Of a stretch of DNA of 64,000 nt, positions 1-43,586 are shown one piece after another; within the stretch, counting starts at the first letter, position 1; the number at the start of each line of letters is the position of its first letter. A model generated the notes under the pieces. That model was not told the DNA's origin and made no database searches. It saw only the letters and a program-made list of their open reading frames with translations. The DNA is taken from positions 18,564 through 82,563 of the forward strand of contig JBCDFZ010000003.1 of NCBI GenBank assembly GCA_039177115.1. Direction: 5' to 3'. The position numbers and the translations under genes are program-made. The stretch is from Myxococcota bacterium (GTDB taxonomy: Bacteria > Myxococcota_A > Polyangia > Polyangiales > Houyiibacteriaceae).

Positions 1-468
1 GACGACAGGCACACGCTGCTCGCCGGAGCCTACCAGCGCGGCATCGAGGTTGAGCTCGACCGCCGGATAGTTGTAGACCATGCCGAGAACGTCGAAGAAG
101 TACTCGCTCCCGAAGTAGTTCGCCGCAAACCCGAAGATCGCGATGTAGACGTTGGCCTTGAACCAGTAGGTTTGATACCAGCGCCGGCCGAGACTCGTTT
201 CGTCGCGAACGACGGCCGGAACCAGCACGAGCGGCAGCGCGACGAGCAGCCCGATGGCCAGGAGACCCGCATCGGCGACCACGTGAGTGACGCCAAATGC
301 CATCACGAGCCCGATGACGAGCATCCACACCGGGGAGTAGAGCAGGAAGAACTTCTCTCCCCATGCCTTACTTGGGTTGTCGGAGAACCATCGCGGCGAG
401 TCACCCTCGATGGCCCGCGACGCGTCCGGCAGCGCGCGGGAGTCTTCGATGGTGGCGTCGGAACTCAT
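1..468 (-). CDS. Cycloeucalenol cycloisomerase-like (plant CPI1 family) integral membrane protein; N-terminal 156 codons, gene runs off the window start
   Basis: Not in the ORF track (no stop in window). My translation from ATG 468..466: MSSDATIEDSRALPDASRAIEGDSPRWFSDNPSKAWGEKFFLLYSPVWMLVIGL...RWYQTYWFKANVYIAIFGFAANYFGSEYFFDVLGMVYNYP. The blocks NPSK-WGE-FFLLY-P-W and YW-KAN...NYF...YFF-VLG..Y.(F/Y)P match plant CPI1 as I remember it. It lies directly downstream of CYP51. A TAGTCT hexamer sits 6 nt upstream of the ATG. Confidence 0.6.
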   Translation of the reverse strand, partial: MSSDATIEDSRALPDASRAIEGDSPRWFSDNPSKAWGEKFFLLYSPVWMLVIGLVMAFGVTHVVADAGLLAIGLLVALPLVLVPAVVRDETSLGRRWYQTYWFKANVYIAIFGFAANYFGSEYFFDVLGMVYNYPAVELNLDAALVGSGEQRVPVV

Positions 469-474
469 GACCAG

Positions 475-480
475 AGACTA
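475..480 (-). promoter_or_regulatory. -10-like hexamer TAGTCT, 6 nt upstream of the CPI1-like ATG (candidate leaderless promoter)
   Basis: The minus strand reads GGGTAGTCTctggtcATG. This is part of the window-wide TAnnnT-N6/7-start pattern. Confidence 0.35.
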
Positions 481-577
481 CCCAAGCAGCGCGATCTGCA
501 CGAGTGCCCGAGCGTTGGTTGGATTTTCAACGATCCCCGGCTCCTTCCCGATCGCCTGGCGGCCCACATCGAGCTCG

Positions 578-1978
578 TCAGGAGGATATACGGGCATCGC
601 TTCCGCCTTTGTGGCGCTTCCTGTAGCGCAGATGGATCGGGGGTTTGGGGCCGAGAACGACGCGCTCGAAATCGGTTTCGATGGGACCCGGGACCAGCTC
701 GAACTCGTAGTCATTCAGCAGAACCGCCAGGATTGTCTTCATCTGCAAGATCGCGAAGGCACTCCCGAGGCATCGATGCCGCCCGCCGCCGAAAGCCACG
801 TAGGCGAACGGAACTCGGTCTTCCTCGCGGCCCGGCCCGTAACGGGTCGGGTCGAAGCGATCCGCCGCGCTGAACACGGCGTCGTCGCGATGGGCAACAA
901 TCGGAGAGACGGTGACCCAATCGCCCTTCTTGATCTCGTAGCCGAGAATCTCACAGTCTTCTTTGGCAGCGCGGAAGAGCATGAAGAGCGGTGGATGGAT
1001 GCGCAGTGCCTCTTTGATCGACCACTCGGTCTTTTCGAGGTCGCGCATCGCCTGAAAGCTGTAGTCTTCGCCGTCGGTGAAGCGGCTCCGGATCTCGTCG
1101 CACACCTGCCCGTAGTACCCGCCCGACCGCAGCAGCTCGACCAGCGTCCACGTCGTCGTGACGGAGCTCGTGTGGTGGCCCGCAAACATGTTGGCGACGA
1201 GAATGCCGGTGATCTCGTGTTCGGTGAGCCGCGAGCCATCTTTGTAAGTCGACTCCATCAGTGTTTGAAGGAAGTCGTCCCCCTCGATGCTGCGCTCCCG
1301 CCGGCGTCGGATGATGTCGGCAATCATCTCGCCGAGTCGCTTCCTGGCCGCATCACGCCGGCGAAACGCGGGGATGGGAAGGTGCGCGTTGATGTACGCA
1401 ATGGGGATGATTCCGCCCTCGAGGTCGTAGTAGACCTTCGCAAACTCCTCGCTCATCTCGTTTCGAAACTCGTCGCCGATGAGACAGCGACTCGAGGTGA
1501 AGTTGGTGAGTCTGGCAAAGAACTCACAGGCTTCGATCCGACCTTCGGATCCCCAGCTCGAGATCGTCTTCTTGGTCTCGTCGGCAATGATGTCCGTGTA
1601 AGTGCGCATTCGGTTGTTGCGAAGCGCCGGGTGAAGCATGTGGAGCTGCTCCATCATTCGGGCGGGCGTGGTGTCGTAGACGACCCCTTTACCGAACACC
1701 GGGATCATCATCTTGTAGGCCTCGGTCGGGCTCAACACCTCGTCGGGCAAACGGAACAGCGACTCGTGACCGGCGGGCCCGGTGAACAATGTGACCCGCT
1801 TCCCGAGAAGCTTGAACTGCGCCACGGCACCGCACTCGTCGTGTGCGCGCTGAAGAAGCCCGACCGGGTCGCGTGCAAAATCGATGGTGTGGCCGATGAG
1901 CGGAAAGCCGCCACGGAGCTGCGGTGGAGGCTTGCGGATTGCACCTCGCATGGGGGCCGTGTCGACGCGAGCAGTCAT
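578..1978 (-). CDS. cyp51: Sterol 14-alpha-demethylase, cytochrome P450 family 51
   Basis: ORF 578..2068(-), trimmed to ATG 1978 (MTARVDTAP...), which overlaps the tetR stop as ATGA. It carries the heme loop FGGGRHRCLG, the I-helix AGHHTSS and the B-prime motif AYKMMIPVFGKGVVYD. These are CYP51 signatures and resemble M. tuberculosis CYP51 as I recall it. Confidence 0.85.
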   Translation of the reverse strand: MTARVDTAPMRGAIRKPPPQLRGGFPLIGHTIDFARDPVGLLQRAHDECGAVAQFKLLGKRVTLFTGPAGHESLFRLPDEVLSPTEAYKMMIPVFGKGVVYDTTPARMMEQLHMLHPALRNNRMRTYTDIIADETKKTISSWGSEGRIEACEFFARLTNFTSSRCLIGDEFRNEMSEEFAKVYYDLEGGIIPIAYINAHLPIPAFRRRDAARKRLGEMIADIIRRRRERSIEGDDFLQTLMESTYKDGSRLTEHEITGILVANMFAGHHTSSVTTTWTLVELLRSGGYYGQVCDEIRSRFTDGEDYSFQAMRDLEKTEWSIKEALRIHPPLFMLFRAAKEDCEILGYEIKKGDWVTVSPIVAHRDDAVFSAADRFDPTRYGPGREEDRVPFAYVAFGGGRHRCLGSAFAILQMKTILAVLLNDYEFELVPGPIETDFERVVLGPKPPIHLRYRKRHKGGSDARISS

Positions 1979-2598
1979 GAGTTCTCCCGAAATAGCGTTC
2001 TTCGTAGTTGGCAGTCGATCTGGTCCACGAGGGCCTCTGGGTCGCCGGTCATCCCGGACTCCACCCACGACGACATGAAGACCTGCTGGATGGAGACCAT
2101 GACGCGCGCGAGCAGCACGGGATCGTCGTCGTAGACGTCTCCCTGGTTGGCGGCTTCTTCGATGACTCTTGCGATGAGGAAGATGCCGCGACGCCAGGCG
2201 TCGACGAGGTCTTCCCCGACCTCGGTCGGATCCGAAGCCCAGCCCACCCCGTCGTTCAGATGAATGCGGAGGTAGTCGGGGTGCTCCGTCAGCCAGCCGA
2301 TGAACACCCGATTTCCCTCGCGCAGCCGATCCGCTGCCCGGGCGGCGGTGCCGAGCGCCTGGCCCGCCAGTTCGAAGAGCTGCCCGAGGCGCTCCTCGTG
2401 GACCGCGTCGAGGATGTCGGATTTGCCTTCGAACACCGAGTAGAGCGTACCGAGGGACAGGCCCGAATCCGCAGCAATTTCCTGGATCTTCGTCCGCTCG
2501 TATCCCTGCGAAGCGAACAGGCGCTCGGCGGCATCGACGATGAGCGAACGGTACATCGTGGCCTTGGCGTTCTTGGCCCGGGCAGCCGCGGTTGACAT
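1975..2598 (-). CDS. TetR/AcrR family transcriptional regulator, first gene of the tetR-cyp51(-CPI) unit
   Basis: ORF 1975..2847(-), trimmed to ATG 2598 (MSTAAARAKNAK...). N-terminal HTH: RSLIVDAAERLFASQGYERTKIQEIAADSGLSLGTLYSVF. The upstream part of the ORF is Arg/Pro-rich junk. Confidence 0.85.
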   Translation of the reverse strand: MSTAAARAKNAKATMYRSLIVDAAERLFASQGYERTKIQEIAADSGLSLGTLYSVFEGKSDILDAVHEERLGQLFELAGQALGTAARAADRLREGNRVFIGWLTEHPDYLRIHLNDGVGWASDPTEVGEDLVDAWRRGIFLIARVIEEAANQGDVYDDDPVLLARVMVSIQQVFMSSWVESGMTGDPEALVDQIDCQLRRTLFRENS

Positions 2599-2608
2599 CA
2601 GATTTCGA

Positions 2609-2626
2609 AGATTAGAATGCGATTCT
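2609..2626. promoter_or_regulatory. AT-rich palindrome AGAATgcgATTCT (2614..2626) overlapping divergent -10-like hexamers; candidate TetR operator and promoters
   Basis: The plus strand has TAGAAT at 2613..2618, facing the Rieske gene. The minus strand has TAATCT at 2614..2609, 10 nt upstream of the tetR ATG. It is a perfect 5+3+5 inverted repeat in a conspicuously AT-rich patch of a GC-rich genome. Confidence 0.35.
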
Positions 2627-2666
2627 CTTTTTCGCAACCTTGTTTTTGTGCTCTTCTCCGAACGCC

Positions 2667-3662
2667 ATGGAGATCCACCCCGCCCCGAGCGCCGATCCGC
2701 GCCTCCCCATGCCCTCGGGCTGGTTTCGCGTGGCAACCAGCGAGGAAGTGCCCGCGAACGGCGTCGCGGTCGTGCGGATGAACGGGCGCGAGCTCGTTGC
2801 GTTCCGCGGCGGCGGCGAGGTGTCGGTGGTCGATCCGATCTGCCCACACATGGGGGCGCATCTCGGTCATGGCGGCCGCGTCATCGACGGGAACCTCCGC
2901 TGTCCGTTTCACGGTCTCCGCTTCGACGGGCAGGGGCGCTGCGTGGGGAGCGAGTATCCGGGTAACCCGACGCTCGACCGCACCCTTCGCACGTGGCCCG
3001 TCACGGAGCAGCTCGGCTGCATCTTCGTTTACTTCGGCCACGACGATTCAACGCCGGACTGGACGTTGCCGCAATACGACACCGCCGGGTGGACGCGACC
3101 GCGAACACGCGTTCTTCAACTCAAGGGCCACGTTCAAGATATCGCCGAGAACTCGGTGGACCTCGGTCACTTCGCCGCCGTGCATGCATACTCGGAGCTC
3201 GACGAGCCCACCATTCGCATGGACGGCCCATACCTTCACTCGAAGTTCGGATTCACCAGGAAGAATCCGTTCTTTCCGTGGGGACAGATCCAATCAGTGT
3301 TCGATACCGACGTGCACGGACTCGGCCTTTCGGTGACCGACCTCCGGGTGCCGAAACTCGGCATGCACTACCGCGTGATCCTGACGGCCACTCAGCTCGA
3401 CGCCGATCGCATGTCCTTCGGCGTCGGGGTGAGCGCGGAGTGCCCCCCACCGTTCGTCCCGCGTTCTGCACGCCGCATTCCCTTTCCCTGGCGGACGGCG
3501 ACACGCGCGCAGATGGCGCTCATTCACCGCTACGTCGTGGCTGACGTCCTTCAAGACCAAGAGATCTGGGAGCATCGCATTCCCATCGAGAACCCGGCGC
3601 TCATCCCGGGAGACGGGCCCATCGTGAAATTTCGACGGTGGGTGAAGCAGTTCTACGCGTGA
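2667..3662 (+). CDS. Rieske [2Fe-2S] non-heme-iron oxygenase (KshA / Neverland / SdmA-like sterol oxygenase family)
   Basis: ORF 2640..3662. Rieske motif: CPHMGAHLGHGG...CPFHGLRF. Mononuclear iron motif D-x2-H-x4-H: DLGHFAAVH. The start is uncertain (ATG 2667, or in-frame TTG 2640). It is divergent from tetR-cyp51. Confidence 0.8.
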   Translation: MEIHPAPSADPRLPMPSGWFRVATSEEVPANGVAVVRMNGRELVAFRGGGEVSVVDPICPHMGAHLGHGGRVIDGNLRCPFHGLRFDGQGRCVGSEYPGNPTLDRTLRTWPVTEQLGCIFVYFGHDDSTPDWTLPQYDTAGWTRPRTRVLQLKGHVQDIAENSVDLGHFAAVHAYSELDEPTIRMDGPYLHSKFGFTRKNPFFPWGQIQSVFDTDVHGLGLSVTDLRVPKLGMHYRVILTATQLDADRMSFGVGVSAECPPPFVPRSARRIPFPWRTATRAQMALIHRYVVADVLQDQEIWEHRIPIENPALIPGDGPIVKFRRWVKQFYA

Positions 3663-3670
3663 CGTCGGTG

Positions 3671-4468
3671 TCAGTGACAGGGGCCGACGCCGGCGGGCGG
3701 ACAGTAGCCGAGCGCAAGCCAGTCCATCGTGAACCCGACGGCCACGTGGATCGCCACGCCGCCCCATATCGAACGAAGTCGCATCGCCAGCGTGCCGAGC
3801 ACGATGCCGGCGCCGATGGCACTCAGGGCCTCAGGTATCGGCTTCGGGTAGTGGATGAGGGCGTAGGGAACCACCATCACGAACACCGCACCATAGCCAA
3901 ACTTGTGGCTGAGTCCTTTGAGCATGTACCCGCGGAAGAAGAACTCGAGGGCGACGAACTGAATGGCGTAAAGGAGCTGCCACTGCCAGAAGTGCCTCGG
4001 CGACTGATTGGCCCACCGATAGAAGGGGTAGGTGGCATGAAAGCTGTCGAACGTAGATACCCAATAGAGAACGGGCAGAACCAGAACGTACAGGCCCACG
4101 TAGATCCACGCGTGACGGAAGACGCCTCGAAACGTGAGGTAGTAGTCGCGTACGCGTTCGCCCGGCATGAGCCAGATGGTCGCGATTGGAATCAGCACGT
4201 AGGCGATGCACCGCGTCGCGGTCCACCACACCCGTACGAGCATCTCCCAGTCCTCGACGGAGTAGTCGCGCCGGTCGAGACCGAACACATGGGCCAGGCT
4301 GACGGAGCCCCCGTAGTAGCTCGCTACCGTCAGCGTGATGGCCGTGGTGAAGAGCACGACCGCCGGTCGCCAGTCGAAGATGCCTGTACCCGCGGTGTCG
4401 GCCTGGGACTCCGCCTCCAACCAGGACTCGTAGAAGGCGCGACGGATGAACCGACGGATCAAGGTCAT
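3671..4468 (-). CDS. CPBP family (CAAX/Abi-type) intramembrane metalloprotease
   Basis: Polytopic membrane protein with the motif ALEFFFRGY (EExxxR-type, variant) and downstream His motifs (YALIHYP, AIHVAVGF). Confidence 0.65.
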   Translation of the reverse strand: MTLIRRFIRRAFYESWLEAESQADTAGTGIFDWRPAVVLFTTAITLTVASYYGGSVSLAHVFGLDRRDYSVEDWEMLVRVWWTATRCIAYVLIPIATIWLMPGERVRDYYLTFRGVFRHAWIYVGLYVLVLPVLYWVSTFDSFHATYPFYRWANQSPRHFWQWQLLYAIQFVALEFFFRGYMLKGLSHKFGYGAVFVMVVPYALIHYPKPIPEALSAIGAGIVLGTLAMRLRSIWGGVAIHVAVGFTMDWLALGYCPPAGVGPCH

Positions 4469-4569
4469 CGTGTTAAGCGGCTCCGCAGCGAAGCTGAGCG
4501 TCCGATCTGGCCGGATTGGGTCACCTGTAGGCGCGGGACTATACCGGATGGTTTCAGGCGTTTGTAGGC

Positions 4570-4575
4570 TAAGCT
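4570..4575 (+). promoter_or_regulatory. TAAGCT within the octamer GCTAAGCT, 9 nt upstream of the GTG start
   Basis: ggCTAAGCTaggaccgacGTG. The same octamer recurs at 16903..16910 and 24091..24098, each time just upstream of a plus-strand start. Confidence 0.3.
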
Positions 4576-4584
4576 AGGACCGAC

Positions 4585-5568
4585 GTGGCATCCCCGACCG
4601 ACAAGCGATTCAAACGCGGCTTGCTTCTGGCAACCCTCGCACTTTGCGCTTTTTTTCTGGCGCAGGGAGCGACGGCGCTGCTCGGTGCGGAGGTGTTGGA
4701 CAAAGACGCCGAGGCGACCGCTCCGCGTCGAAGAGGCGGATCGTTCGCGTCGCCTCGGAAGCGTCACGATCCCAACGTGATTCTGCGTCGAAACATCTTC
4801 AACTCGGCATTGGGAGACCTGACGCAAGTCGACACGGGCTCGGCGACCGAGATCGACGGTGAGCTCGTGATTGGGGATGAAGAAGAGGTCGATCGTTGCC
4901 AGACCCGCTTGAGGCTCGCCGGCACGGCGGTCGTTCCGGGAGATCTGGAGCGCTCCCTCGCAGTGATCGTCGGCACGGACCAGGAGACGAAGGTTCACCA
5001 GGGGACAGCCGAGGTCGAGGACTTCAGGATTCGAGCGATCCACGCGGACAGCGTGTTCCTTCAGACGGGCGGCGATCTCTGCAAGCTCGCCATGTTCGTG
5101 GCGGACGACACTCAGGCGGTCCGCAAGCTGCCAAAGCCGGTCGCTCCAAAGACCACCGAGAAGGAAGACAAGAAGAAGCGTGTCAAGGTCGACCGAAACG
5201 CCGGGCTGAGCGACGAAGAGATCGCTCAGGGCATCGAGAAGGTCAACGACACCACCTTCAACATCCGGCGGACGCTGCTCAACAAGGTTCTCGATAGCGC
5301 GGGCAGGCTCATCGGGATCGCAGCAGTTAGCCCGAAGATGGAGAACGGAAAGTCGGTGGGTATGCAGATCCGCGGTATTCGAAAAGACACGTTGATCGAG
5401 AAGCTCGGACTCAAGAACCAAGACATCCTCGAGAGCGTGAACGGCGAGCCACTCTCGAGCCCCGACTCGGCGCTTGGCGCCTATACGACCCTTCGCACCT
5501 CCGACAAGTTCGTCATCGCCGTCAATCGCGAGGGAGAGTCGATGCAGATCACCTACAACCTCAACTAG
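4585..5568 (+). CDS. GspC-like PDZ-domain protein (type II secretion protein C family)
   Basis: It has an N-terminal membrane anchor (GLLLATLALCAFFLAQGATALL) and a C-terminal PDZ-like segment (GMQIRGIRKDTLIEKLGLKNQDILESVNGEPLSSPDSALGAY). No other gsp genes are adjacent. Confidence 0.55.
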   Translation: MASPTDKRFKRGLLLATLALCAFFLAQGATALLGAEVLDKDAEATAPRRRGGSFASPRKRHDPNVILRRNIFNSALGDLTQVDTGSATEIDGELVIGDEEEVDRCQTRLRLAGTAVVPGDLERSLAVIVGTDQETKVHQGTAEVEDFRIRAIHADSVFLQTGGDLCKLAMFVADDTQAVRKLPKPVAPKTTEKEDKKKRVKVDRNAGLSDEEIAQGIEKVNDTTFNIRRTLLNKVLDSAGRLIGIAAVSPKMENGKSVGMQIRGIRKDTLIEKLGLKNQDILESVNGEPLSSPDSALGAYTTLRTSDKFVIAVNREGESMQITYNLN

Positions 5569-11332: not shown

Positions 11333-12346
11333 TCAGGCGGGCGGCCCGAGCCGGCTTGCGCCCCTCGGTGAGCGGAGAAGAAGCGCGAGCCAACTCCACT
11401 CGTCCGACTGCGACGCCGTGATGCGCACGATGATCGTGAGCGGAACGGACAGCAGGGCACCAACCGGCCCGAGGACGAATCCCCAGAACACCATCGACAA
11501 CACCACCACGGTAGGTGACAGGTCGGTCGCGTCGCCGGCCCAACGTGGTTCGATCCCGATGCCAATGAGGAAGTTGATCGCCATATAGCCGAGTGCGATC
11601 CCGATGGCGGGGGCGATACCGAGGGTGACCAGCGAGAGTGCGATGGCAGGAACGGAAGCGAGGATGCTTCCGATGCTCGGGATGTAGTTCAAGATGAACG
11701 CGAGGAGCCCAAACAGCAGCGAGTGTCCGAGCCCCACGACTGCCGTCAGCGCGGCGACGAGAAGACCGGTCGCCGCGCTCGTTGCGGTCTTGATGAGCAG
11801 ATACTGCTGGACGTCGCGGGCCGCGCCACGGAGCACCTGCGCGTTGAAACGGCCGAGGCGGTCGGTATTGGCGAGCTTTCTCGAAAACGACGAGCCTTCC
11901 ACCACCAAGAACACGGTGATGAGCAGCACCAGGAACCCCGCGGAGACGACGCTGAGCGCGAGCGTAAAGCCGGGCAGCGCCAGGCCGCGAACGAGGTCGC
12001 TGGGCTCGAACTCCTGCACGGCGGTCGCCGGGATTCCGAGCCCCTGAGCCCAGAGCCAGTTGGCGAGCTCCGCCTGGAGCGAATCCCACTCGGCCCGGTA
12101 CTGGGTGAACGCGCCGGCGAGATCGGTTGCCGCGCGGGTCGTGAGGAACCCGAGGAGCGAGACGACTCCGACCGCCGAGAGGCACGCGATCGCCACGGCG
12201 AGCCATCGGGGCAGGCCTTTTTCCGTGAGGCCGACGATCTTCGAGAGACTCACCGCAATGAGGCTCGCTAGAAGCACCGGAATGACGATGGGCCGCCCCA
12301 AGCTCAACACCACGAGGAACACGCCGAAGGCGGCCAACCGAACCAT
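11333..12346 (-). CDS. AI-2E family (PerM/YhhT-like) transporter
   Basis: 337 aa, about 8 TM helices, conserved C-terminal half (...YIPSIGSILASVPAIALSL...VFWGFVLGPVGALLSVPLT). TAGTCT sits 6 nt upstream of the ATG. Confidence 0.8.
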   Translation of the reverse strand: MVRLAAFGVFLVVLSLGRPIVIPVLLASLIAVSLSKIVGLTEKGLPRWLAVAIACLSAVGVVSLLGFLTTRAATDLAGAFTQYRAEWDSLQAELANWLWAQGLGIPATAVQEFEPSDLVRGLALPGFTLALSVVSAGFLVLLITVFLVVEGSSFSRKLANTDRLGRFNAQVLRGAARDVQQYLLIKTATSAATGLLVAALTAVVGLGHSLLFGLLAFILNYIPSIGSILASVPAIALSLVTLGIAPAIGIALGYMAINFLIGIGIEPRWAGDATDLSPTVVVLSMVFWGFVLGPVGALLSVPLTIIVRITASQSDEWSWLALLLRSPRGASRLGPPA

Positions 12347-12352
12347 GGGCGG

Positions 12353-12358
12353 AGACTA
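12353..12358 (-). promoter_or_regulatory. -10-like TAGTCT, 6 nt upstream of the AI-2E transporter ATG
   Basis: The minus strand reads TGCTAGTCTccgcccATG. Confidence 0.35.
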
Positions 12359-12414
12359 GCAGACGACCATGAAAAGCACGGGCGTCGGCCACCGTGCTGA
12401 AAAAGAGCGCCGTT

Positions 12415-13839: not shown

Positions 13840-13878
13840 GCTGGGCCACGCCGATAGCGATATCGTCAGCCCGTTCTC

Positions 13879-15543
13879 GTGATGAGATTCGGCCCATATC
13901 TCTCGGCCTCCCTCGTCGCGGCGGCTTGCCTGAGCTGCAGCGGGGGTGGAGACGGTTCCGGCGCAGCGCCTGCGGTGGAAGCCGGACCCGTGGCGCTCCG
14001 TCGACTGACGACCGAGCAGTACACCGCAAGCGTTCGCGACGCCCTCGGCGATCACATCACCGTGCCGAGCCGCATCGATCCCGACGAGCGTCGGGAAGGC
14101 CTTCTGGCGGTCGGATCCACGTTTGCCGGCGTGACGCCTTCCGGCTTCGAGAAGTACGAAGCCGCTGCGACGACGATCGCAGAGCAGGCGCTGGACCCGG
14201 AGTATCGGGCAGTCCTCGTCGGCTGTGAGCCCCAATCCTCGAGCGGTGCGGACGACGTCTGTGCCCGCGAGTTCTTGGGCCGCGTTGGACGTCGACTCTT
14301 CCGGCGAGACCTGACGAGTGACGAACTCGAGGGCCGCGTTGCCGTCGCACGCGACGCCGCTGGCGTGCTCGGCGGCTTCTACGAAGGGCTCGAACTCGCG
14401 CTCGCTAGCTTGCTGGTGTCACCTGATTTTCTCTTTCGCGTAGAGCGCACGGAAGCCGATCCAGACGACGACACGCGTCAACGACTCACCGCCGGAACGA
14501 TCGCCGCGCGGCTCAGCTATCTCCTTTGGAACACCACCCCCGACGATGAGCTCCTGAACGCTGCAGATGACCGTACCTTGCTCGAGCGCGACGTCTTGCT
14601 CGAGCAGGTGGATCGACTGTTGGCCTCCCCGCGCGCGGAGGTGGGGCTGCGGTCGCTGTTCTCCGACCTCCTCGACTTCAGGCAGTTCGACGACGGCTTG
14701 GTCAACAAGGACGCCTCGCTGTTTCCGGCTTTCACGCAAACCATTGCGCAGGACGCCAAAGAGCAGACTCTTCGGACGCTCGTCGATCACCTGACGTCTG
14801 GGCGCGACTATCGGGATCTGTTCACGACGAGGCGCACGCACCTCTCGCGCGAGCTCGGCCAGGTGTACCAGGTTCCCGTGGTGACGGCGTCCGGCTTCGA
14901 GCCCCATGTCTTCGACGACGCGGTTCCCCGGGCCGGGCTGCTTTCGCATGTCAGCGTCATGTCGCTCCATGCCCAGCCCGGTCGGAGCTCCGCCACGCTT
15001 CGAGGTAAGTTCGTGCGCGAGGTCCTGCTCTGCCAAGAGGTCCCGACACCTCCGGCCGACGTCGACTTCTCGATTGTCGAGAACACGGCCGGCGAGCTCC
15101 GAACGGCTCGCGAACGCCTCGAGGTCCACGTGACGAACGACGAGTGCTCTGGCTGTCACAACTTGATGGACCCGATCGGTCTAGCCTTCGAGAACTTCGA
15201 TGCGATGGGAGCGTTCCGAGAGACCGAGAACGGCATCACTATCGACGCCTCGGGCCAGCTCGACGGCGTCCCCTATGATGGCCCGCTCGAGGCCGGCGAG
15301 GCGCTGCGAAACCACCCGAACCTCGGATCCTGCTTCGTGCGAACGCTGTTCCGCTACGCAGTAGGTCGCGACGCCGTACCCACCGAGTGGCCTCTGATCG
15401 ACTACCTCGGTGAGCGATTTGCCGAAGGCGGCTACGTCGCCAACGACATCGTCCGCGAGATCGTGCTGAGCGATGGGTTCCTCTTCACTTCAGGGCCCAG
15501 AGACCTGGAAGTCACGGACGAAACACAGGAGGCTGCCGAGTGA
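13879..15543 (+). CDS. DUF1592/DUF1588/DUF1585-type protein with a heme-c motif (Planctomycetes/Myxococcota PSD family)
   Basis: Lipoprotein-like signal MMRFGPYLSASLVAAACLSCSGG. CxxCH motif ECSGCHNLMDPIG. Paired with a DUF1552 gene by a GTGA overlap. Family assigned from memory. Confidence 0.7.
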   Translation: MMRFGPYLSASLVAAACLSCSGGGDGSGAAPAVEAGPVALRRLTTEQYTASVRDALGDHITVPSRIDPDERREGLLAVGSTFAGVTPSGFEKYEAAATTIAEQALDPEYRAVLVGCEPQSSSGADDVCAREFLGRVGRRLFRRDLTSDELEGRVAVARDAAGVLGGFYEGLELALASLLVSPDFLFRVERTEADPDDDTRQRLTAGTIAARLSYLLWNTTPDDELLNAADDRTLLERDVLLEQVDRLLASPRAEVGLRSLFSDLLDFRQFDDGLVNKDASLFPAFTQTIAQDAKEQTLRTLVDHLTSGRDYRDLFTTRRTHLSRELGQVYQVPVVTASGFEPHVFDDAVPRAGLLSHVSVMSLHAQPGRSSATLRGKFVREVLLCQEVPTPPADVDFSIVENTAGELRTARERLEVHVTNDECSGCHNLMDPIGLAFENFDAMGAFRETENGITIDASGQLDGVPYDGPLEAGEALRNHPNLGSCFVRTLFRYAVGRDAVPTEWPLIDYLGERFAEGGYVANDIVREIVLSDGFLFTSGPRDLEVTDETQEAAE

Positions 15544-16898
15544 CCCGCCGATTCCATCGCCGCTCGCTCCTCCGCGGAACGCTCGCCGGTGGTGCCGTGG
15601 CCATGGGGCTCCCGCTGCTCGACTGCTTCTTGAACGACCACGGCACGGCGCTCGCTCAGGGTGCGCCGATTCCGATTCGCTATGGAAGCTGGATGTGGGG
15701 ATGCGGCATGAACCCCGACCGGTGGAATCCGACCAGCGCCGGTACGGACTGGGAGCTGACCCCGGAGCTCGTCGCGCTCGGTCGAGAACTCCCGCAGGGC
15801 GGCACCGTCAGGGACCACGTCACGGTGCTGAGCGGCTTCGACGTCTTGCTTGGGGGACGCCCCAACTTTCCGCACACCGGGGGACTGGTCTCGACCACCA
15901 CCGGAAGCGTACCCCTCGAAGACGGAGTGTACGTCGAACCGACGCTCGATTCGGTCATTGCGTCGGAGATTGGCAAAGCCACGAGGTTCCGCTCGATCGA
16001 GATGTCCGCCACCGGGAACCCGAATCAGTTCTACAGCTACGAGGCGAGAGGCGTCCCGAACGCGCCCGAGATCTCGCCGGCCGCGCTCTACACCCGGGTC
16101 TTCGGGCCCGAGTTCGCCGACCCGAACGCAGGCCCGTTCGTGCCCGACCCGCGGCTCATGCTCCGCCAGAGCGTCCTGTCCGTCGTCAAAGAAGACCGCG
16201 ACCGGCTGATGGGCGAGCTCGGCACGCACGATCGGCAGCGCCTCGACCAATACTTCACCTCCGTCAGACAGCTCGAGCAGCAGATCGACGTGCTGCTAGC
16301 AGGCCCGCCGGACCTTGAAAGCTGCATGAAGGCGCCCGAACCCGGGCCGGAGAGCCTCGGGAACGAGGTCGGTCAGTCGCGAACCACCAATAAGCTCATG
16401 GCGGACATCCTCGCGTTCGCGCTGGCGTGCGACCAAACGCGCGTGTTCAGCATGATGTTCTCGTTTCGGCTTTCAGGGCTCCGTCAGGCCGGATCGAACT
16501 CCGAGCACCACCAGCTCACGCACGACGAGGCGGTCGTGGCGAGTCTCGGATACCAGCCGGAGGCCACCCAATTCGTCTTCGACTCCATGGAGGGCTGGGC
16601 CGACTTCGTGGAATCACTTGCCGCCATCCCCGAGGGCCAAGGGACCCTGCTCGACAATTGCTTGGTGTACGCCCACTCGGACGTCTCCTTCGCCAAGGTG
16701 CATGGCGTCATCGGGATCCCGCAGATGATCGCCGGCCGGGCCGGGGGCGCCATCACACCAGGGCTTCACATCCCGGGCAACGCTTCGCAGACCACCCGCG
16801 TCGGTCTCACGATCCAACAGGTGATGGGGCTCAACGTAGAGCGCTGGGGGACGCTTTCGATGGAGGCGACTCTGCCGGTCAACGAGCTTCTGGCGTAG
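15540..16898 (+). CDS. DUF1552 family protein with a twin-arginine signal
   Basis: TAT-type N-terminus RRFHRRSLLRGTLAGGAVAMG. Its start GTG overlaps the upstream stop (GTGA). Confidence 0.7.
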   Translation: MTRRFHRRSLLRGTLAGGAVAMGLPLLDCFLNDHGTALAQGAPIPIRYGSWMWGCGMNPDRWNPTSAGTDWELTPELVALGRELPQGGTVRDHVTVLSGFDVLLGGRPNFPHTGGLVSTTTGSVPLEDGVYVEPTLDSVIASEIGKATRFRSIEMSATGNPNQFYSYEARGVPNAPEISPAALYTRVFGPEFADPNAGPFVPDPRLMLRQSVLSVVKEDRDRLMGELGTHDRQRLDQYFTSVRQLEQQIDVLLAGPPDLESCMKAPEPGPESLGNEVGQSRTTNKLMADILAFALACDQTRVFSMMFSFRLSGLRQAGSNSEHHQLTHDEAVVASLGYQPEATQFVFDSMEGWADFVESLAAIPEGQGTLLDNCLVYAHSDVSFAKVHGVIGIPQMIAGRAGGAITPGLHIPGNASQTTRVGLTIQQVMGLNVERWGTLSMEATLPVNELLA

Positions 16899-21916: not shown

Positions 21917-22687
21917 ATGCTTGGCTTCACGAAGAAGCGCCGACGCGAACTGATGGCGCAACCTCTGCCGCCCGAATGGCTTGCGATCGTGCACGAAAAC
22001 GTGCCTTACGTCAGCAAGCTCCCCGGGGAGGACCAGAAGGAGCTCCAAGGGTTGATGCAGGTGTTCCTCGACGAGAAGAAGTTCGAAGGGTGTGACGGCC
22101 TCGAGATTACCGACGAGATCCGAGTGACCATCGCAGCGCAGGCCTGCGTGCTGCTCCTTCACCGCGAAACCAACTTCTACCCGAAGCTGCAGTCGATTCT
22201 GGTCTATCCCCACGCCTACGTGGCGAAGGGTGTGCGGGCAACCGACCGCAACGTCATGACGGAAGGGCCGCAGGCGAGGCTCGGGGAGTCGTGGGGACAC
22301 GGAAGCGTCGTTCTTTCGTGGGACGACGTCGTACGAGGCGCATCCGACGTTCGCGATGGGCACAACGTGGTGTTCCACGAGTTCGCGCACCAGCTCGACC
22401 AAGAGAACTCGGTCGGACCAGGAGCACCGACGCTCGCTCGTCGGTCGATGTACCTCGCCTGGGCGCGCGTTCTCGGCCACGAGTACGAAGCACTGCTCGA
22501 CGACCTCGAACACCACCGGCGCACGCTCATCGACCCATACGGCGCGACCAACGCGGCGGAGTTCTTCGCGGTTGTCAGCGAGCTGTTTTTCGAGAAACCG
22601 AAGCAGCTCGAGAAGAAGCACCCGGAACTCTATGCACAGCTACGCGGGTTCTACCAGCAGGACCCGGCGTCGATTCGTCAGAGCTGA
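21917..22687 (+). CDS. mtfA: MtfA-like zinc peptidase (M90 family)
   Basis: HEFAHQLD zinc motif. About 250 aa with a typical MtfA N-terminus (LPPEWLAIVHENVPYVSKLPGEDQKEL). Confidence 0.75.
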   Translation: MLGFTKKRRRELMAQPLPPEWLAIVHENVPYVSKLPGEDQKELQGLMQVFLDEKKFEGCDGLEITDEIRVTIAAQACVLLLHRETNFYPKLQSILVYPHAYVAKGVRATDRNVMTEGPQARLGESWGHGSVVLSWDDVVRGASDVRDGHNVVFHEFAHQLDQENSVGPGAPTLARRSMYLAWARVLGHEYEALLDDLEHHRRTLIDPYGATNAAEFFAVVSELFFEKPKQLEKKHPELYAQLRGFYQQDPASIRQS

Positions 22688-24048
22688 AACCCGTCGATCA
22701 CACCGACGGCGACGGCGAGCTTGATCCTCGAGTCGTTGTACTTGGCGAGGGCCTGAACGTACTGGTTTCTTGCAGTGGCCAGCGACGTCTGCGCGGCAAC
22801 GAGCTCGAGGTTGTCGCTAACCCCGTTGAAAAAACGGTCGCGCGAGAGTTTCAGCGAAAGCTCTGAGACCTTGACTCGCTCTGCGGTCGCAACCACCTCC
22901 TGGGCGGCGAAGATAATCGACTGGATTGCGCTCCGAACCTGCTCGTCGGCGTCTTCCTTGAGCTGTTCCAGAATCTGCTCCGCCTCGGCCTGGCGGCTTC
23001 GAGCGGCCTTGATGTTCCCGATGGTTTGGCCGCCGTCATAAAGCGGCACCGAAAGCACGCCGCCAATCAGATAGGTTCCGTTGACGTTTCGCGCGATAGT
23101 GTCTCCGCTGCCACCGTAGTTGACGCCGAAACCGAGTGACGGCACCTGCTGCCCGATGGCCGCCCGAAGCTTGTACCCAGCAACACGAATGGTCTCCTCG
23201 GAGAACTTGATGTCGGGCCGGTTGGTCTCGGCGCTCTTGACGGCCTCGTCGATGAGAGGAAGTTGGACGACACGATCTTGAAGGGGCGTCGTCAGTCGAA
23301 TCGGCGTGGACTGCGGGATCTGCAGGAGCGCCTTGAGCTGGTTCGTCGATACCAAGAGAGCGGTCTGGGCTTGAAGAAGACGGGTTTCGCTCGCAAGCGC
23401 CCGCGACTCTGCGCGCGCTTTGTCTAGTGCCGTTGCAACGCCGGAGTCGAACGCCACGCTGGTGTCTTTCTCGAGCTCCTTCGCCAAAGCCAGGTCTGCC
23501 GCAAACGCCTCGACCGAACCTCGAGCTTCCAAAACCTGAACGTACGTCTCTCCGACCTTCTGAAAGACGAGGTGCTGCGAGAGCACGTACTTCACCTCAG
23601 CGCGCTCGAGCGTGGCCTTCCCGGCTTGGGCGGCCCCGATGGCAGTGAGGCTGAAGATGGTCTGAGTCGCCGTGAGGCGCGCGTCAAACGTGTTGAATGG
23701 GCCAAAGACGCTGTTTCCGAGATCGAAATCGCTGGGATCGAGCCCGACGGACACCAGGTTCGCCGTGCGCCGCGTCTGCTGAACGGAGCCCGAGACGTTG
23801 GGCAGCAGTCCGGATAGGCTCTCGAGGCGCTCACCTTTCGCGGTCTCGATTCCTTGGCGCGACACCGCGGTGCGAACGTTTCGCTCGATGCCGAGCTGAA
23901 TCGCCTTCTCGAAGCTCAGGGGTATGGTTTCGACGACTGGAATCTCGACGACTTCGACCGCGATGTCCTGCGCCGACGCGCCGTGGGCGAGCAGCGCGAG
24001 TGCAACGACGAGGGTCGCCAACGGTGGCCGCGACGGGCATTTCAGCAC
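22678..24048 (-). CDS. TolC-family outer membrane efflux protein
   Basis: ORF 22678..24270(-), trimmed to GTG 24048. This gives the signal peptide (M)LKCPSRPPLATLVVALALLAHGASAQ. GACTAT sits 6 nt upstream. Two-repeat OEP architecture. Divergent from the adaptor and pump genes. Confidence 0.75.
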   Translation of the reverse strand: MLKCPSRPPLATLVVALALLAHGASAQDIAVEVVEIPVVETIPLSFEKAIQLGIERNVRTAVSRQGIETAKGERLESLSGLLPNVSGSVQQTRRTANLVSVGLDPSDFDLGNSVFGPFNTFDARLTATQTIFSLTAIGAAQAGKATLERAEVKYVLSQHLVFQKVGETYVQVLEARGSVEAFAADLALAKELEKDTSVAFDSGVATALDKARAESRALASETRLLQAQTALLVSTNQLKALLQIPQSTPIRLTTPLQDRVVQLPLIDEAVKSAETNRPDIKFSEETIRVAGYKLRAAIGQQVPSLGFGVNYGGSGDTIARNVNGTYLIGGVLSVPLYDGGQTIGNIKAARSRQAEAEQILEQLKEDADEQVRSAIQSIIFAAQEVVATAERVKVSELSLKLSRDRFFNGVSDNLELVAAQTSLATARNQYVQALAKYNDSRIKLAVAVGVIDGFQL

Positions 24049-24072
24049 GGTCCGATAGTCCCCCAATGTCGC

Positions 24073-24092
24073 TTTTTCGGCGATTTTTCGGC
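24073..24092. repeat. Tandem direct repeat TTTTTCGGC-ga-TTTTTCGGC (11-bp phase) in the divergent efflux promoter region
   Basis: Read directly at 24073..24081 and 24084..24092. It abuts the TAAGCT hexamer (24093..24098), which lies 7 nt upstream of the adaptor GTG. Confidence 0.5.
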
Positions 24093-24105
24093 TAAGCTCC
24101 AACCC

Positions 24106-25230
24106 GTGAAACGACGTCTGATCGTGATGGGCATCGCCCTCGGGGTCGTCTTCGGGGGGCTCCTCGGGTGGAACCTCCTGAGGGGCAAGCTCCGTCAGGA
24201 CTATCTGAAGAAGCATCAGCCAGGGCCCACGGCGGTTTCGGTCACGGCCGTGACAACCAAGCCCTACCAACCGACGCTCTCCGCAGTGGGGACGCTGAAG
24301 GCCGCCGAGCAGGTGGACGTCACCTCACAAGCCGGCGGCAAGGTCACGAAGATCTTGTTCAAAGATGGGCAGAACGTTGACGAGGGTGACCTCTTGGCTG
24401 TTCTCGATGACGAGGCGCAGCGGTCGCAGCTGGCCGGTGCCGTCGCGCAACGCGACGAAGCTGCCGATGCGGTTCGCCGCTACAAGCCGTTGCTCGAGGA
24501 AGGCGCTATCTCGCAGCTGAAGTACGACCAGCTCACGGCCACCTACAAGGAGGCGAACGCGCAGGTCGGTGAGGCGAAGGCGGCGCTCTCCTACGTCCGT
24601 GTGACGGCACCGTTCGCTGGCCGCGTCGGGATCCGCCAGGTGAACCTCGGAGAGATGGTCCGGGCGGGCCAGAACATCGTCACACTCGATACGCAAGGCG
24701 GGCTCTACTGCGACTTTTCACTGCCAGAGTCCGACCGCGAACGAGTTGCGGTGGGACAGGTCGTCACGCTGACCACCGACGTCGTCCCCGGCAAGACGTT
24801 TTCGGGTTCTGTGACGGCAATCGACCCTGAGATCGACACATCCACGAGGAACTTCGGCGTACGCGCTACGTTCCCCGATGAGGAAACCGCGCTGACTCCG
24901 GGCTCTTTCGCAAACCTGGCGCTCGACGTCGGCCAGCCGGAAGACGTGCTCATGATCCCGAGGACCGCGATCGCGTACTCGCTCTACGGCGACACGGTGT
25001 ACGTACTCCAGGAGTCGACGAAAACCGAGCGCGACAAGGTCACCGCGTATCAGGTGAAGAAGACGACGGTGACCCTCGGCGCCCAGCAGGCCGACGACGT
25101 CATCGTCGACAAAGGACTCGAAGCCGGAGAGCTGATTGTCACGAGCGGGCAGCTCCGCCTCGAAGACGGCGACTGGGTGACGCCCAAGCAGAACGACCTG
25201 GAGCCTCCGAAGACGCTTCCGCTGGAGTGA
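24106..25230 (+). CDS. RND efflux periplasmic adaptor (membrane fusion protein)
   Basis: ORF 23854..25230, trimmed to GTG 24106 (VKRRLIVMGIALGVVFGGLLGW). Lipoyl/HlyD-type motifs (VDVTSQAGGKVTKILFKDGQNVDEGDLLAVLDD). Confidence 0.85.
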   Translation: MKRRLIVMGIALGVVFGGLLGWNLLRGKLRQDYLKKHQPGPTAVSVTAVTTKPYQPTLSAVGTLKAAEQVDVTSQAGGKVTKILFKDGQNVDEGDLLAVLDDEAQRSQLAGAVAQRDEAADAVRRYKPLLEEGAISQLKYDQLTATYKEANAQVGEAKAALSYVRVTAPFAGRVGIRQVNLGEMVRAGQNIVTLDTQGGLYCDFSLPESDRERVAVGQVVTLTTDVVPGKTFSGSVTAIDPEIDTSTRNFGVRATFPDEETALTPGSFANLALDVGQPEDVLMIPRTAIAYSLYGDTVYVLQESTKTERDKVTAYQVKKTTVTLGAQQADDVIVDKGLEAGELIVTSGQLRLEDGDWVTPKQNDLEPPKTLPLE

Positions 25231-25231
25231 C

Positions 25232-28200
25232 GTGAACTTCACCGACACCTTCATCAAGCGCCCCGTCCTGTCGACAGTCGTCGGCCTGGTCATCCTGCTC
25301 TTGGGAGTCCAGGGGTTCGCGAGCATCTCGGTGAGCGAGTTCCCCAAGATGAAGAACACGGTCATCACCGTGACCACGATCTACCCCGGAGCTCCACAGG
25401 ACCTCATTCAAGGCTTCATCACCACGCCGCTTCAGACAGCGATGGCCTCTGCTGAAGGCATCGACTACCTCGCCGCGTCGTCTGTCCCGAGCCAGAGCCA
25501 GATCCAAGCGTACGTCGAGCTCGACTACGATCCCGACTCGGCCCTCGTGGAGATCATGTCCAAGGTCGCCCAAGTGCAGAGCCAGTTGCCGAAGAACGCA
25601 CTGCAGCCCGTCATCGACAAGGAGACCGGCGACGAAGTCTCCGTGTTCTACATGGGCTTCTACTCCGACACCCTCAGCTCGGAGCAAATCACGGAGTACA
25701 TCAGTCGCATCGTTCAGCCACTGTTCGAGACCGTAGAGGGCGTGGGCGAAGTGGACATCCTCGGAGGCACCGAATACGCGATGCGTGTCTGGCTCGATCC
25801 GAAAGAGATGGCGGCGCGTCAGGTTCGGCCGGACGAGGTTTTCGAAGCCCTCACCAACAACAACTATCAGGCCGCAGCCGGGCAGATCGAAGGCTACTTC
25901 ACCGTCGCCTCGATCACCGCGAACACCACGCTCGAAGACACCAAGCAGTTCGAGCAGCTGGTCGTCCGGCACGAAGACGACACGCTCATTCGATTGCGCG
26001 ACATCGCCACGATCGAACTCGGCTCGGAAACCTACGACACGCGCGTTCTAGTCAAGGGGAAGCCGGCGGTCGCACTGCAGGTGGAGCAGGCGCCCGACGC
26101 GAACCCAATCACCGTGATCGGCGCCATTAAAGCGATGCTGCCGGAGATGTCGACGCAGATGCCGGAGGGGCTCGAGTACGAAATCCTGCTCGACCAGACG
26201 GTGTTCATCGAGGACTCCATTCACGAGGTGGTCGACACCATCTGGATCACCGCGGCCATCGTGATCCTGGTGATCTTTCTCTTCATGGGCAGCTTCCGCG
26301 CCGTGATCATTCCAGTGGTGACCATTCCGCTCTCTCTGGTCGGGGTCATCTTCTTCATGGAAGCGCTCGATTTCTCCCTGAATCTTCTGACCCTGCTGGC
26401 CATGGTGATCGCGATCGGGCTGGTCGTGGATGACGCCATCGTCGTAGTCGAGAACGTCCAGCGACACATCGACGAGGGGAAAACACCGCTCGAGGCGGCC
26501 AAGCTCGGCGCAAGGGAGATCGCGGGGCCGGTGATCGTCATGACCTTCACGCTCGCAGCCGTGTTCGCTCCGATCGGATTCGTCGGAGGGCTGTCCGGCG
26601 CGCTCTTCTCAGAGTTTGCCTTCACCTTGGCCGGGTCGGTGGTGGTCTCAGGCATCCTCGCGCTGACGCTCTCTCCCATGATGAGCTCTCGCTTCCTGAA
26701 GGGCGGTGATAAACCGAAGATGCAAGAATGGGTCGAACGTACGTTCGCCAAGGTCGAACGGCGCTACGCCCGCCTGCTCGAAGACGTGCTCGAGCATCGG
26801 CCCATGATTCTGATGCTTGCCGCGGCGGTGCTCTCGAGCATCCCTGTCCTGTTCTTGAACACGCCCGTCGAGCTGGCTCCGGATGAAGACAAAGGCATCA
26901 TCATGGGACAGGGCACGGCTCCGATGTACGCGAACATCGACTACACCGCGAAGTACACGGAGCAAGCAGCCGACATCTTCCAGGCGCTCCCGGAGAACCA
27001 GATCACGTTCTCCGTGGCGGGCTCGGCTGGACCGAGCGCATCCTTCATCGCAACGAGCCTCAAGCCCTGGAAGGAGCGAAAGCGGAGCCAGCGCGAGATC
27101 CGCATGGCGCTGCAGAAGGAGCTCACCGAAGTCACTGGGATGGAGTTCTACACGTTCGTGATCCCGCCGCTGCCGGGCAACAAGATCGGACTGCCCGTCC
27201 AATTCGTGATCACCACGCAGGACTCGGGTTTCGACCAACTCTACAAGGTGATGCTCGAGATCGAGAGCAAGGCAGAGGCAAGCGGCAAGTTCTATTTCAT
27301 CGACCGGAGCCTCCGCATGAACAATCCGGAGATCACGCTCGACGTGGACTCCTCGCTCGCCGGAGAGCTGGGGATTACCATGGCTGAGATCGGACGCGCT
27401 CTCGCGCTCGCGTTCGGCGACAACTACATCGATTACTTCGACATGGAGGGCCGCAGCTACGAAGTGATTCCGCAGGTCGCCCGTGAGTTTCGGATCGACG
27501 ACGACACCATCAATCAGATCTACGTAGCGACCGCGACCGACAGGCTCGTTCCGCTGGGTACGGTGGTTTCGATCAAGAAGACCACCACCCCGAACGCACT
27601 CACGCAGTACAACCAGCTCAACTCCGCGAGCCTCAACATGCTTCCCTACCCGTGGGTTTCGATGGGGGAAGCCGTCGAGCTTCTCGATGGCTGGGCGAAA
27701 GAGGTGTTTCCGAAAGGATACGACTACGCGTACACAGGCGAATCTCGTCAGTACGTCCAGGAGGGTAACACGCTGGTCTACGCGTTCATCTTCGCCATCC
27801 TTCTCATCTTCCTCATGCTGGCCGCCAAGTTCGAGTCGTGGCGCGACCCGTTCGTGGTGATGTTGAGTGTACCCATGGCAATCTCGGGCGCGCTCGTGTT
27901 CATGCAGGCCGGTGTCACCACTCTCAACATCTACTCCGAGATCGGGTTGGTGACGCTGGTCGGTCTCATCAGCAAGCACGGAATCCTGATCGTCGAGTTC
28001 GCGAACCAGTTGCAGGACGAAGGCAAGTCCAAGCTGGACGCCATCCAGGGCGCTGCGGCGACCCGCCTACGACCTGTGCTGATGACCACGTTCGCGATTG
28101 TCGTCGCGATGATCCCGCTCATGATTGCGAGCGGCGCCGGGGCCGCAGCCCATCACTCCATCGGATGGGTCATCTTCGCGGGCATGTCGATTGGAACGTG

Positions 28201-37997: not shown

Positions 37998-40432
<2,435 letters not shown>

Positions 40433-40436
<4 letters not shown>

Positions 40437-43579: not shown

Positions 43580-43586
43580 GATACGG

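Follow-up and report, generated by a model that had tools for sequence, protein, structure and literature searches.

How bacteria handle sterols matters for the origin of the eukaryotic pathway and for the reading of sterane biomarkers. In this paper we examine a small gene cluster in a stretch of 64,000 nucleotides (nt) from a genome of the phylum Myxococcota (contig JBCDFZ010000003.1), to which we will refer in the following as the window. The cluster lies at the left edge of the window (positions 1-3662) and is predicted to encode a TetR-family regulator, the sterol 14alpha-demethylase CYP51, a membrane protein homologous to the cycloeucalenol cycloisomerase of plants (CPI; CPI1 in plants) and, in the opposite direction, a Rieske oxygenase related to the steroid enzyme KshA. 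All four genes that an earlier note on this DNA had placed here are present, and the cluster is laid out as follows (aa, amino acids):

1..468, minus strand: 5' part of the gene for a CPI1-like polytopic membrane protein (start codon ATG at 468-466; 156 of its 287 codons lie inside the window)
469..577, minus strand: cyp51-cpi spacer of 109 nt, with no terminator-like structure
578..1978, minus strand: CYP51 sterol 14alpha-demethylase, 466 aa, assigned on Pfam p450, PDB matches and motifs
1975..2598, minus strand: TetR-family regulator, 207 aa, assigned on Pfam TetR_N; its TGA stop codon overlaps the cyp51 ATG as ATGA (1978-1975)
2599..2666, no strand: divergent control region, 68 bp, containing a block that is conserved in 15 orthologous loci
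2614..2626, no strand: palindrome AGAATGCGATTCT, candidate TetR operator from the 15-locus alignment, spanning promoter spacer and -10 box
2667..3662, plus strand: KshA-like Rieske [2Fe-2S]/mononuclear-iron oxygenase, 331 aa, assigned on Pfam Rieske and KshA_C (alternative start TTG at 2640)

The frames of the CPI-like protein, CYP51 and the Rieske protein are supported as coding by the G+C content at their third codon positions (GC3, 0.79-0.83), and the TetR frame is accepted on account of its Pfam match and its conserved orthologues. The G+C content of the region (0.62-0.64) equals that of the remainder of the window, so that base composition gives no sign of foreign origin, and Rfam and tRNA scans of the window returned nothing. 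A terminator scan of the minus strand between cyp51 and cpi found none, which makes it plausible that both genes are carried on one transcript; the fold z-score of the spacer is 0.28 against shuffled sequences. The cluster is truncated by the left edge of the window and extends past it, as can be seen from the Logan contig L001, whose genes are identical to those of the window, and from related loci. On L001 the full gene of the CPI-like protein occupies positions 11511-12374 (L001:11511-12374), followed by one further gene, on the other strand, for a 244-aa membrane protein, after which the contig stops. Indeed, the contigs on record with these exact proteins stop about 1.8 kb beyond the start of the window, and an attempt to extend the contig leftwards by looking up a protein from the middle of the window gave no match.

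On sequence grounds the P450 is a CYP51, as the earlier note had proposed. In P450 nomenclature an identity of at least 40% to established CYP51 members is the family criterion, and the family is marked by the haem-thiolate signature FxxGxxxCxG, a B'/BC region of the form Y..F/M..P.FG..V.YD and the helix I motif AGxHTS; it is also the P450 family with the narrowest substrate range. The window protein is 45% identical (199/444 positions) to CYP51 of Methylococcus capsulatus and 43% identical (190/444) to that of Mycobacterium tuberculosis, and the motifs quoted earlier are present in it (FGGGRHRCLG, AGHHTSS as part of FAGHHTSS, and AYKMMIPVFGKGVVYD). Compared with solved structures, it scores highest against these same two enzymes (6mcw, 429 bits, and 1e9x, 386 bits); the 56 solved CYP51 sequences give 217-429 bits, with eukaryotic members reaching at most 297 bits, as against 154 bits for the best P450 outside the family (3dbg). 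The match to Pfam p450 amounts to 217 bits. Proteobacterial homologues from related loci carry a C-terminal ferredoxin tail (CQGH..C...CP) that the window protein lacks, and no ferredoxin is found either fused to its 466 aa or as a separate open reading frame (ORF) in positions 1-4500.

The membrane protein encoded immediately downstream of cyp51 is, judged by its sequence, a true homologue of plant cycloeucalenol cycloisomerase, and here too the first identification has held up. BLASTP aligns it with a protein of Mercurialis annua (XP_050222975.1) at 119 bits (E 4e-36, 30% identity over 251 aa), and HMMER matches it at E 1.9e-39 to P0137, one member of whose 90%-identity cluster is named cycloeucalenol cycloisomerase by JGI. 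A word-indexed search retrieved 721 homologues, mainly from metagenome-assembled genomes (MAGs) of Polyangiales/Myxococcota and several of them with the same JGI name, and the family delimited by an exhaustive HMMER search counts 629 representative clusters. Among these are protist members (Syssomonas and an MMETSP transcript) as well as land plants, whose proteins from Mercurialis, Rhizophora, Raphanus and Canavalia bear the name cycloeucalenol cycloisomerase. Twelve bacterial, protist and plant sequences share 22 invariant alignment columns, including K104, N117, Y118, H169, R177 and E206. Searches of the CPI-like protein against Pfam, NCBIfam and PDB sequences gave no match; its AlphaFold2 model (287 aa, pLDDT 73.7) consists of seven long helices.

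The bacterial protein, then, aligns with plant CPI1 over its full length, shares the invariant residues and resembles it in size and in having about seven membrane helices. It differs in that identity amounts to only 30-35%, in an 11-residue insertion of the bacterial clade that eukaryotic CPI1 lacks, and in its placement in a bacterial operon under a TetR regulator. The Arabidopsis enzyme was reportedly described by Lovato et al. in 2000. Plant CPI1 requires a 4alpha-monomethyl substrate, and the C-4 demethylation that the plant enzyme thus needs upstream is not encoded in the window locus. In plants, CPI1 and CYP51 act consecutively, leading from cycloeucalenol over obtusifoliol to a delta-8,14 sterol (PMC8172173), so that the two families which lie adjacent here are those that perform consecutive steps there.

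The same gene pair recurs widely. One genome per species was scanned with the CPI alignment, which yielded 80 loci, and their neighbouring genes were assigned by tblastn with the window proteins and by clustering of the called ORFs. Uncultured Polyangiales/Myxococcota, including Myxococcales bacterium SG8_38, account for 52 loci, and gamma- and alphaproteobacteria for 28; cultured carriers are gamma proteobacterium HdN1, Zavarzinia marina and Spongiibacter pelagi. Measured against the CPI of the window lineage, the best tblastn segment has 65-77% identity in the myxobacterial loci (52-53% in L078 and L079) and 50-58% in the proteobacterial ones. Among loci whose upstream sequence reaches 2 kb or more, a same-strand cyp51 immediately precedes cpi in 42/46 myxobacterial and 25/26 proteobacterial cases (67/72 in total). 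The pair therefore spans two phyla, and its other neighbours differ. A TetR of the window type (at least 60% identity) precedes cyp51 in about 25 myxobacterial loci, and the 4-nt overlap between tetR and cyp51 (ATGA or GTGA), already pointed out in the earlier note and readily seen in the window, persists in 23 of 26 orthologous loci. Since both the adjacency and the overlap recur, the arrangement is not a product of chance.

The Rieske gene follows another pattern. It is present in 9 of the 38 myxobacterial loci with enough sequence, where its divergent position never varies, and 22 proteobacterial loci all lack it; in two loci (L002 and L024) tetR and cyp51 are missing and the Rieske gene still adjoins cpi. 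The conserved unit is thus cyp51-cpi, usually together with tetR, and the Rieske gene, owing to this restricted occurrence, is an accessory of one sub-lineage. The original picture of three enzymes packed around one TetR regulator gives way to a unit tetR-cyp51-cpi.

A further gene intervenes in some of the relatives. In 11 myxobacterial and 12 proteobacterial loci a soluble protein of 200-235 aa, which we call the 212-aa type, is encoded between cyp51 and cpi (e.g. L004:9324-9944, L005:9320-9988, L067:9331-9969 and L073:9283-9990); the window has the 109-nt spacer instead. In the parts of their paper available to us, Lee et al. (2026) describe an NTF2-type 8,14-sterol reductase (8,14-Bsr) that is co-located with ferredoxin-linked Cyp51 in methanotrophs, mycobacteria, proteobacteria and uncultured myxobacteria (PMC13277303); CPI did not come up in these parts. 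The 212-aa protein is a candidate 8,14-Bsr by position, a positional guess on which Pfam, NCBIfam and PDB sequence searches were uninformative. In comparison with M. capsulatus and M. tuberculosis, whose CYP51s are the closest solved relatives, the proteobacterial cyp51-cpi loci have the fused ferredoxin that Lee et al. (2026) describe for that bacterial clade and a 212-aa gene where 8,14-Bsr would be expected, whereas the window CYP51 has neither and is followed by the CPI1 homologue.

The regulator matches Pfam TetR_N (PF00440) with 49.7 bits over residues 20-66. Against the NCBIfam equivalog of KstR it reaches 16.6 bits (cut-off 280), and no other curated regulator matched as an orthologue. 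The 68-bp intergenic region that separates tetR from the Rieske gene is AT-rich, and when 15 orthologous loci are aligned, a conserved block, GTTGCAAAAAAnAGAATnnnATTCTAAT, stands out upstream of tetR. On the minus strand the control region contains a -35-like TTGCGA (2637-2632), a 17-nt spacer and a -10-like TAATCT (2614-2609). The 15 aligned loci have, in the promoter region of tetR, a palindrome that can be written AGAATnnnATTCT; its arms, AGAAT/ATTCT, are conserved or deviate by one or two bases in most of the loci, and its 3-nt centre varies freely. Conserved arms around a variable centre are the usual signature of an operator bound by a dimer. The window copy, AGAATGCGATTCT, is the sole exact one within the 64 kb, and we infer that this palindrome (2614-2626) is a candidate TetR operator. 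The -10-like box stops about 10 nt before the tetR ATG (2596-2614) and no Shine-Dalgarno sequence is visible, for which reasons the tetR-cyp51 mRNA may be leaderless or nearly so.

A second architecture was observed in ten loci (L006, L009, L013, L015, L017, L019, L023, L035, L038 and L042), where a GNAT/cNMP-binding protein replaces tetR upstream of cyp51. In these loci a TetR paralogue of about 40% identity lies beside an aldehyde dehydrogenase at the far end of the gene island, about 10 kb downstream of cpi, and the sequence upstream of the paralogue (GGAATTGACATTCTGATTTTCGCC...ATCATTCC) is near-identical among them and unlike that of the window.

The Rieske ORF opens at a TTG (2640); its start is most probably the ATG at 2667, which gives 331 aa and the database protein P0285. 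The Rieske ligands take the form CPH-x17-CPFH (CPHMGAHLGHGGRVIDGNLRCPFH) and the iron site the form DLGHFAAVH (D-x2-H-x4-H), and these residues are invariant over 29 homologues. Besides Pfam Rieske (65.7 bits) the protein matches KshA_C (PF19298) over the whole model (82 bits, cut-off 23.3, positions 1-207/207), and a family profile built from the 29 homologues aligns with KshA 4QDC at 180 bits over positions 7-329 of 333, followed by SxtT with 109 bits. By these comparisons the closest characterised relative is the steroid enzyme KshA. With the KshA structures 4QDC and 2ZYL the protein shares CxH-x17-CxxH, D-x2-H-x4-H, the KshA_C domain and a C-terminal helix QD.EIW...DGP..RRW.QFY; it differs from them in being about 60 residues shorter, in the lack of a KshB-type reductase nearby (neither such a reductase nor kstD occurs among the window ORFs scanned by Pfam) and in a CYP51/CPI context in place of the kst/hsa regulon.

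The earlier note had described this gene as a divergent oxygenase of the Rieske/mononuclear-iron type, which stands, with KshA as its nearest relative, and had brought it into connection with SdmA, which does not. The pair SdmA/SdmB reportedly constitutes a bacterial sterol C-4 demethylase, described by Lee et al. in 2018 and 2023. Like the window protein, SdmA is a Rieske-type oxygenase, and it acts on sterols together with SdmB (SdmAB; PMC10202945). Against the NCBIfam SdmA equivalog (NF052579), however, the window protein scores 50.4 bits where the cut-off is 600, and the match covers residues 28-181, i.e. the N-terminal Rieske half, only, for which reason we regard it as KshA-like and not as SdmA. 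An SdmB-type partner is likewise missing beside the gene, its neighbours being TetR and a CPBP protease, and SdmB-like genes (127 bits) were found in proteobacterial loci only. Three close homologues (P0314, P0318 and P0394) bear the JGI name cholesterol 7-dehydrogenase/7-desaturase, which is the sole lead towards the animal 7-desaturase Neverland/DAF-36, and most others generic names; around more distant ones (38-46% identity; loci L084-L087) no sterol genes were seen.

These observations are best explained, with a probability of roughly 0.6, by a TetR-controlled operon tetR-cyp51-cpi that acts on the sterol nucleus. A TetR dimer would bind the palindrome AGAATnnnATTCT over its own promoter and thereby repress the operon, from which a ligand, probably a sterol, would release it, and tetR and cyp51 are translationally coupled through their overlap. 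The CPI1 homologue would open the 9beta,19-cyclopropane ring of a cycloartenol-type sterol to yield a delta-8 sterol, from which CYP51 would next strip the 14alpha-methyl group to give a delta-8,14-diene, the order of steps being as in plants. The KshA-like Rieske oxygenase, expressed from the shared control region, would be an optional addition, probably a hydroxylase or desaturase for substrates of this class.

Several points weigh against this interpretation. Three quarters of the related loci do without the Rieske gene. The locus provides neither ferredoxin nor reductase for CYP51 or the Rieske protein, and a delta-8,14-reducing gene is missing from the window operon, as is the 212-aa gene of close relatives. 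A generic promoter scan found no site in positions 1-4700 and did not call the proposed tetR promoter; the assignments of promoter and operator are for this reason drawn from conservation. A Foldseek search of the CPI-like model against PDB gave nothing significant (best E 1.5), and since the model matches no solved fold, the fold offers no hint on mechanism. We know of no bacterial CPI1 homologue that has been assayed, and literature searches surfaced none. Finally, those bacteria which are known to produce cycloartenol leave it unmodified, both the myxobacteria concerned (PMC12004948) and, according to Wei et al. (2016), Fluviicola and Methyloceanibacter (PMC4919349).

Two alternatives, which we hold to be about equal, concern the origin of the substrate. 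It is possible that the organism synthesises sterols de novo, with an oxidosqualene cyclase (OSC) of its own making cycloartenol, the operon forming the nucleus-tailoring branch and the Rieske enzyme supplying a missing step such as C-4 methyl oxidation or C-7 desaturation, an account that we rate as tentative. Among bacterial phyla, sterol synthesis runs deepest in Myxococcota, and Lee et al. (2025) counted 145 Cyp51 sequences in their MAGs (PMC12004948). In a purely phylogenetic study, Hoshino and Gaucher (2021) placed CPI1 among eight sterol genes with myxobacterial homologues, mostly syntenic (PMC8237579). That study agrees with ours in family, phylum and synteny with stage-2 sterol genes, and its main text, as far as accessible, is silent on a TetR-coupled operon, an operator, a KshA-like neighbour and proteobacterial members. 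A C-4 oxidase beside CPI would furthermore fit the need of the plant enzyme for a 4alpha-monomethyl substrate, and the 7-desaturase names of the three close Rieske homologues point in the same direction.

By contrast, the genes for such a synthesis were not encountered. A Pfam scan of 36 of the longer ORFs across the rest of the window detected no OSC, squalene epoxidase (SQMO), C-14 reductase (ERG24), SMT or other canonical sterol gene, nor an SdmB, and a six-frame search for the OSC catalytic motif had 0 matches in 1.33 Mb, comprising the window and the 10-kb flanks of the 80 related loci. Missing neighbours are weak evidence, given that the sterol genes of Enhygromyxa salina are dispersed (PMC10202945). 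Synthesis is also disfavoured by the low SdmA score of the Rieske protein and the absence of its gene from most related loci, and a coupled TetR repressor would be more typical of inducible substrate processing than of housekeeping lipid synthesis.

It is equally conceivable, and no more than that, that the operon processes external sterols: it would be induced by 9,19-cyclopropyl 14-methyl sterols of plants or algae, the nucleus of which would be salvaged or degraded, with KshA-like, BphC/HsaC-like and HsaD-like enzymes attacking the rings in a manner comparable to mycobacteria acting on lanosterol. This account draws on the full-length match of the Rieske family profile to KshA, on the inducible type of regulator, on the absence of an OSC motif within 10 kb of cpi throughout 80 genomes, and on what lies beyond the window edge in relatives. 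Left of cpi, the island of Polyangiales loci goes on with the 244-aa membrane protein and sometimes holds a LipL-like esterase and an FAD amine-oxidase-like protein. It includes an extradiol dioxygenase (296 bits to the BphC model, 241 bits to that of HsaC), either a hydrolase that scores best with the HsaD model (199 bits) or a protein resembling diaminopentanoate dehydrogenase, and further a TRAP-type binding protein, a GMC oxidoreductase, an aldehyde dehydrogenase and a sulfotransferase. Examples of this continuation lie 3-10 kb downstream of cpi (L002:12482-19375; also L017, L022 and L036). The neighbours past the window edge thus look as catabolic as biosynthetic, and because of them, and of the lack of synthesis genes nearby, the emphasis that the earlier note placed on sterol synthesis appears overstated.

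The 244-aa polytopic protein itself (L001:12381-13115) is encoded convergently with cpi about 0.9-1.6 kb beyond the start of the window. It is found downstream of cpi in 28 of the 33 Polyangiales loci with enough sequence and has 518 database homologues, all named 'hypothetical', with invariant motifs that include WSxYxLFDPGY and FWQMFYGTxxYFFQFF. The idea that it might be a delta-8/delta-7 isomerase of the EBP/EXPERA type was dropped: profile searches with Pfam, NCBIfam and PDB were negative, and its AlphaFold2 model (pLDDT 73.5) gave a best Foldseek E of 0.65 with a TM score below 0.3, which lends the EBP idea no support.

The proteobacterial loci add to the case for external sterols, since GMC oxidoreductase and aldehyde dehydrogenase genes accompany cyp51-cpi there too. 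Their compact clusters, as in HdN1 (L073), S. pelagi (L074), Z. marina (L067), L053 and others, have no OSC motif within 10 kb and comprise an ERG25-like fatty-acid hydroxylase, a protein of the 3beta-HSD family, an SdmB-like protein of the epimerase family (127 bits), a CYP51-ferredoxin fusion, the 212-aa protein, CPI, a GMC oxidoreductase, an aldehyde dehydrogenase and a divergent TetR. From its sequences this set reads like a toolkit for sterol C-4 demethylation, ring opening and C-14 demethylation. The hosts include the cultured hydrocarbon degraders HdN1, Z. marina and S. pelagi, and an OSC survey of bacterial genomes makes no mention of HdN1 (PMC4919349); a literature search on steroids in strain HdN1 matched unrelated fungal strain names only. 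A precedent is offered by mycobacteria, which apply Cyp51 and 8,14-Bsr to external sterols: M. tuberculosis has both without synthesising sterols, and a Mycobacterium turns lanosterol into a C19 steroid (PMC13277303).

Against the use of external sterols it can be said that all equivalog-level scores in the island, those of BphC, HsaC and HsaD among them, fall below the curated cut-offs, so that these could be ordinary genes of aromatic meta-cleavage, and that KstD, KshB, HsaAB and genes for rings C/D were not seen. The catabolic-looking genes are found only in relatives, outside the window, the contig of the window locus ending before them, and the search for OSC covered the window and flanks of 10 kb. 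To our knowledge steroid catabolism has not been described in Myxococcota.

That cyp51-cpi is not a sterol system at all, i.e. that P450 and CPI-like protein act on some other polycyclic triterpenoid or lipid, or are adjacent through inherited synteny without a shared pathway, is very improbable: the bacterial CPI clade is indeed known from sequence alone and has its own insertion, and the proteobacterial hosts are alkane degraders whose GMC and aldehyde dehydrogenase genes resemble oxidation of the AlkJ/AlkH type, but CYP51 is the most substrate-restricted P450, the window protein keeps its motifs and 43-45% identity to two proven sterol 14-demethylases, the pairing with cpi persists across phyla as other neighbours change, and in proteobacteria it sits with the ERG25-like, 3beta-HSD-like and SdmB-like genes of a sterol C-4 demethylation set.

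Returning to the operon acting on the sterol nucleus, we may speculate, with a fairly low probability, that cyp51-cpi forms the inducible first part of a route so far overlooked, through which bacteria that make no sterols would take up cyclopropyl, 14-methyl sterols of plants or algae such as cycloartenol. Ring opening and nuclear demethylation would be followed by reuse or by degradation through KshA-, HsaC- and HsaD-like enzymes, and the hosts would be uncultured Polyangiales of sediments and hydrocarbon-degrading gamma- and alphaproteobacteria. If this uptake route is real, Myxococcota would have their first island for the processing of steroids, and a bacterial CPI would for the first time be given a physiological role. 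Should the module occur in genomes free of OSC, it would mean that environmental bacteria remodel or consume early sterol intermediates of plants and algae.

As the families and their presence in myxobacteria were already known, the locus is a good experimental candidate and not a new kind of system. Together with about 70 relatives it presents a conserved two-gene module with a regulator and a probable operator, a compact test case which could show whether bacteria convert cycloartenol into a delta-8 sterol in the manner of plants. Its value lies in a candidate for the first bacterial cyclopropyl-sterol isomerase and in a new, possibly sterol-active Rieske oxygenase.

Among the remaining genes of the window, the right neighbours of the cluster encode the CPBP protease, a GspC-like protein, an MscK-type channel and an acyl-CoA thioesterase; they are syntenic in Polyangiales and have no obvious link to sterols. 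Further to the right (49348-53182, minus strand) lies an SCP2-type thiolase (677 bits to the 'lipid-transfer protein' model) beside an 876-aa MFE-2-like protein that combines SDR and hydratase domains with two SCP2 sterol-carrier domains. The two form a beta-oxidation pair of the peroxisomal style, which could accept branched or steroid side chains. Unrelated gene sets occupy 13858-16898, 22678-28300 and 37998-44455; they comprise a DUF1585-1595/DUF1552 pair whose PSD/PSCyt domains are of planctomycete type, genes for an outer-membrane factor, a membrane-fusion protein and an RND efflux pump, and a molybdenum hydroxylase of the CoxL/CoxM type accompanied by CoxE.

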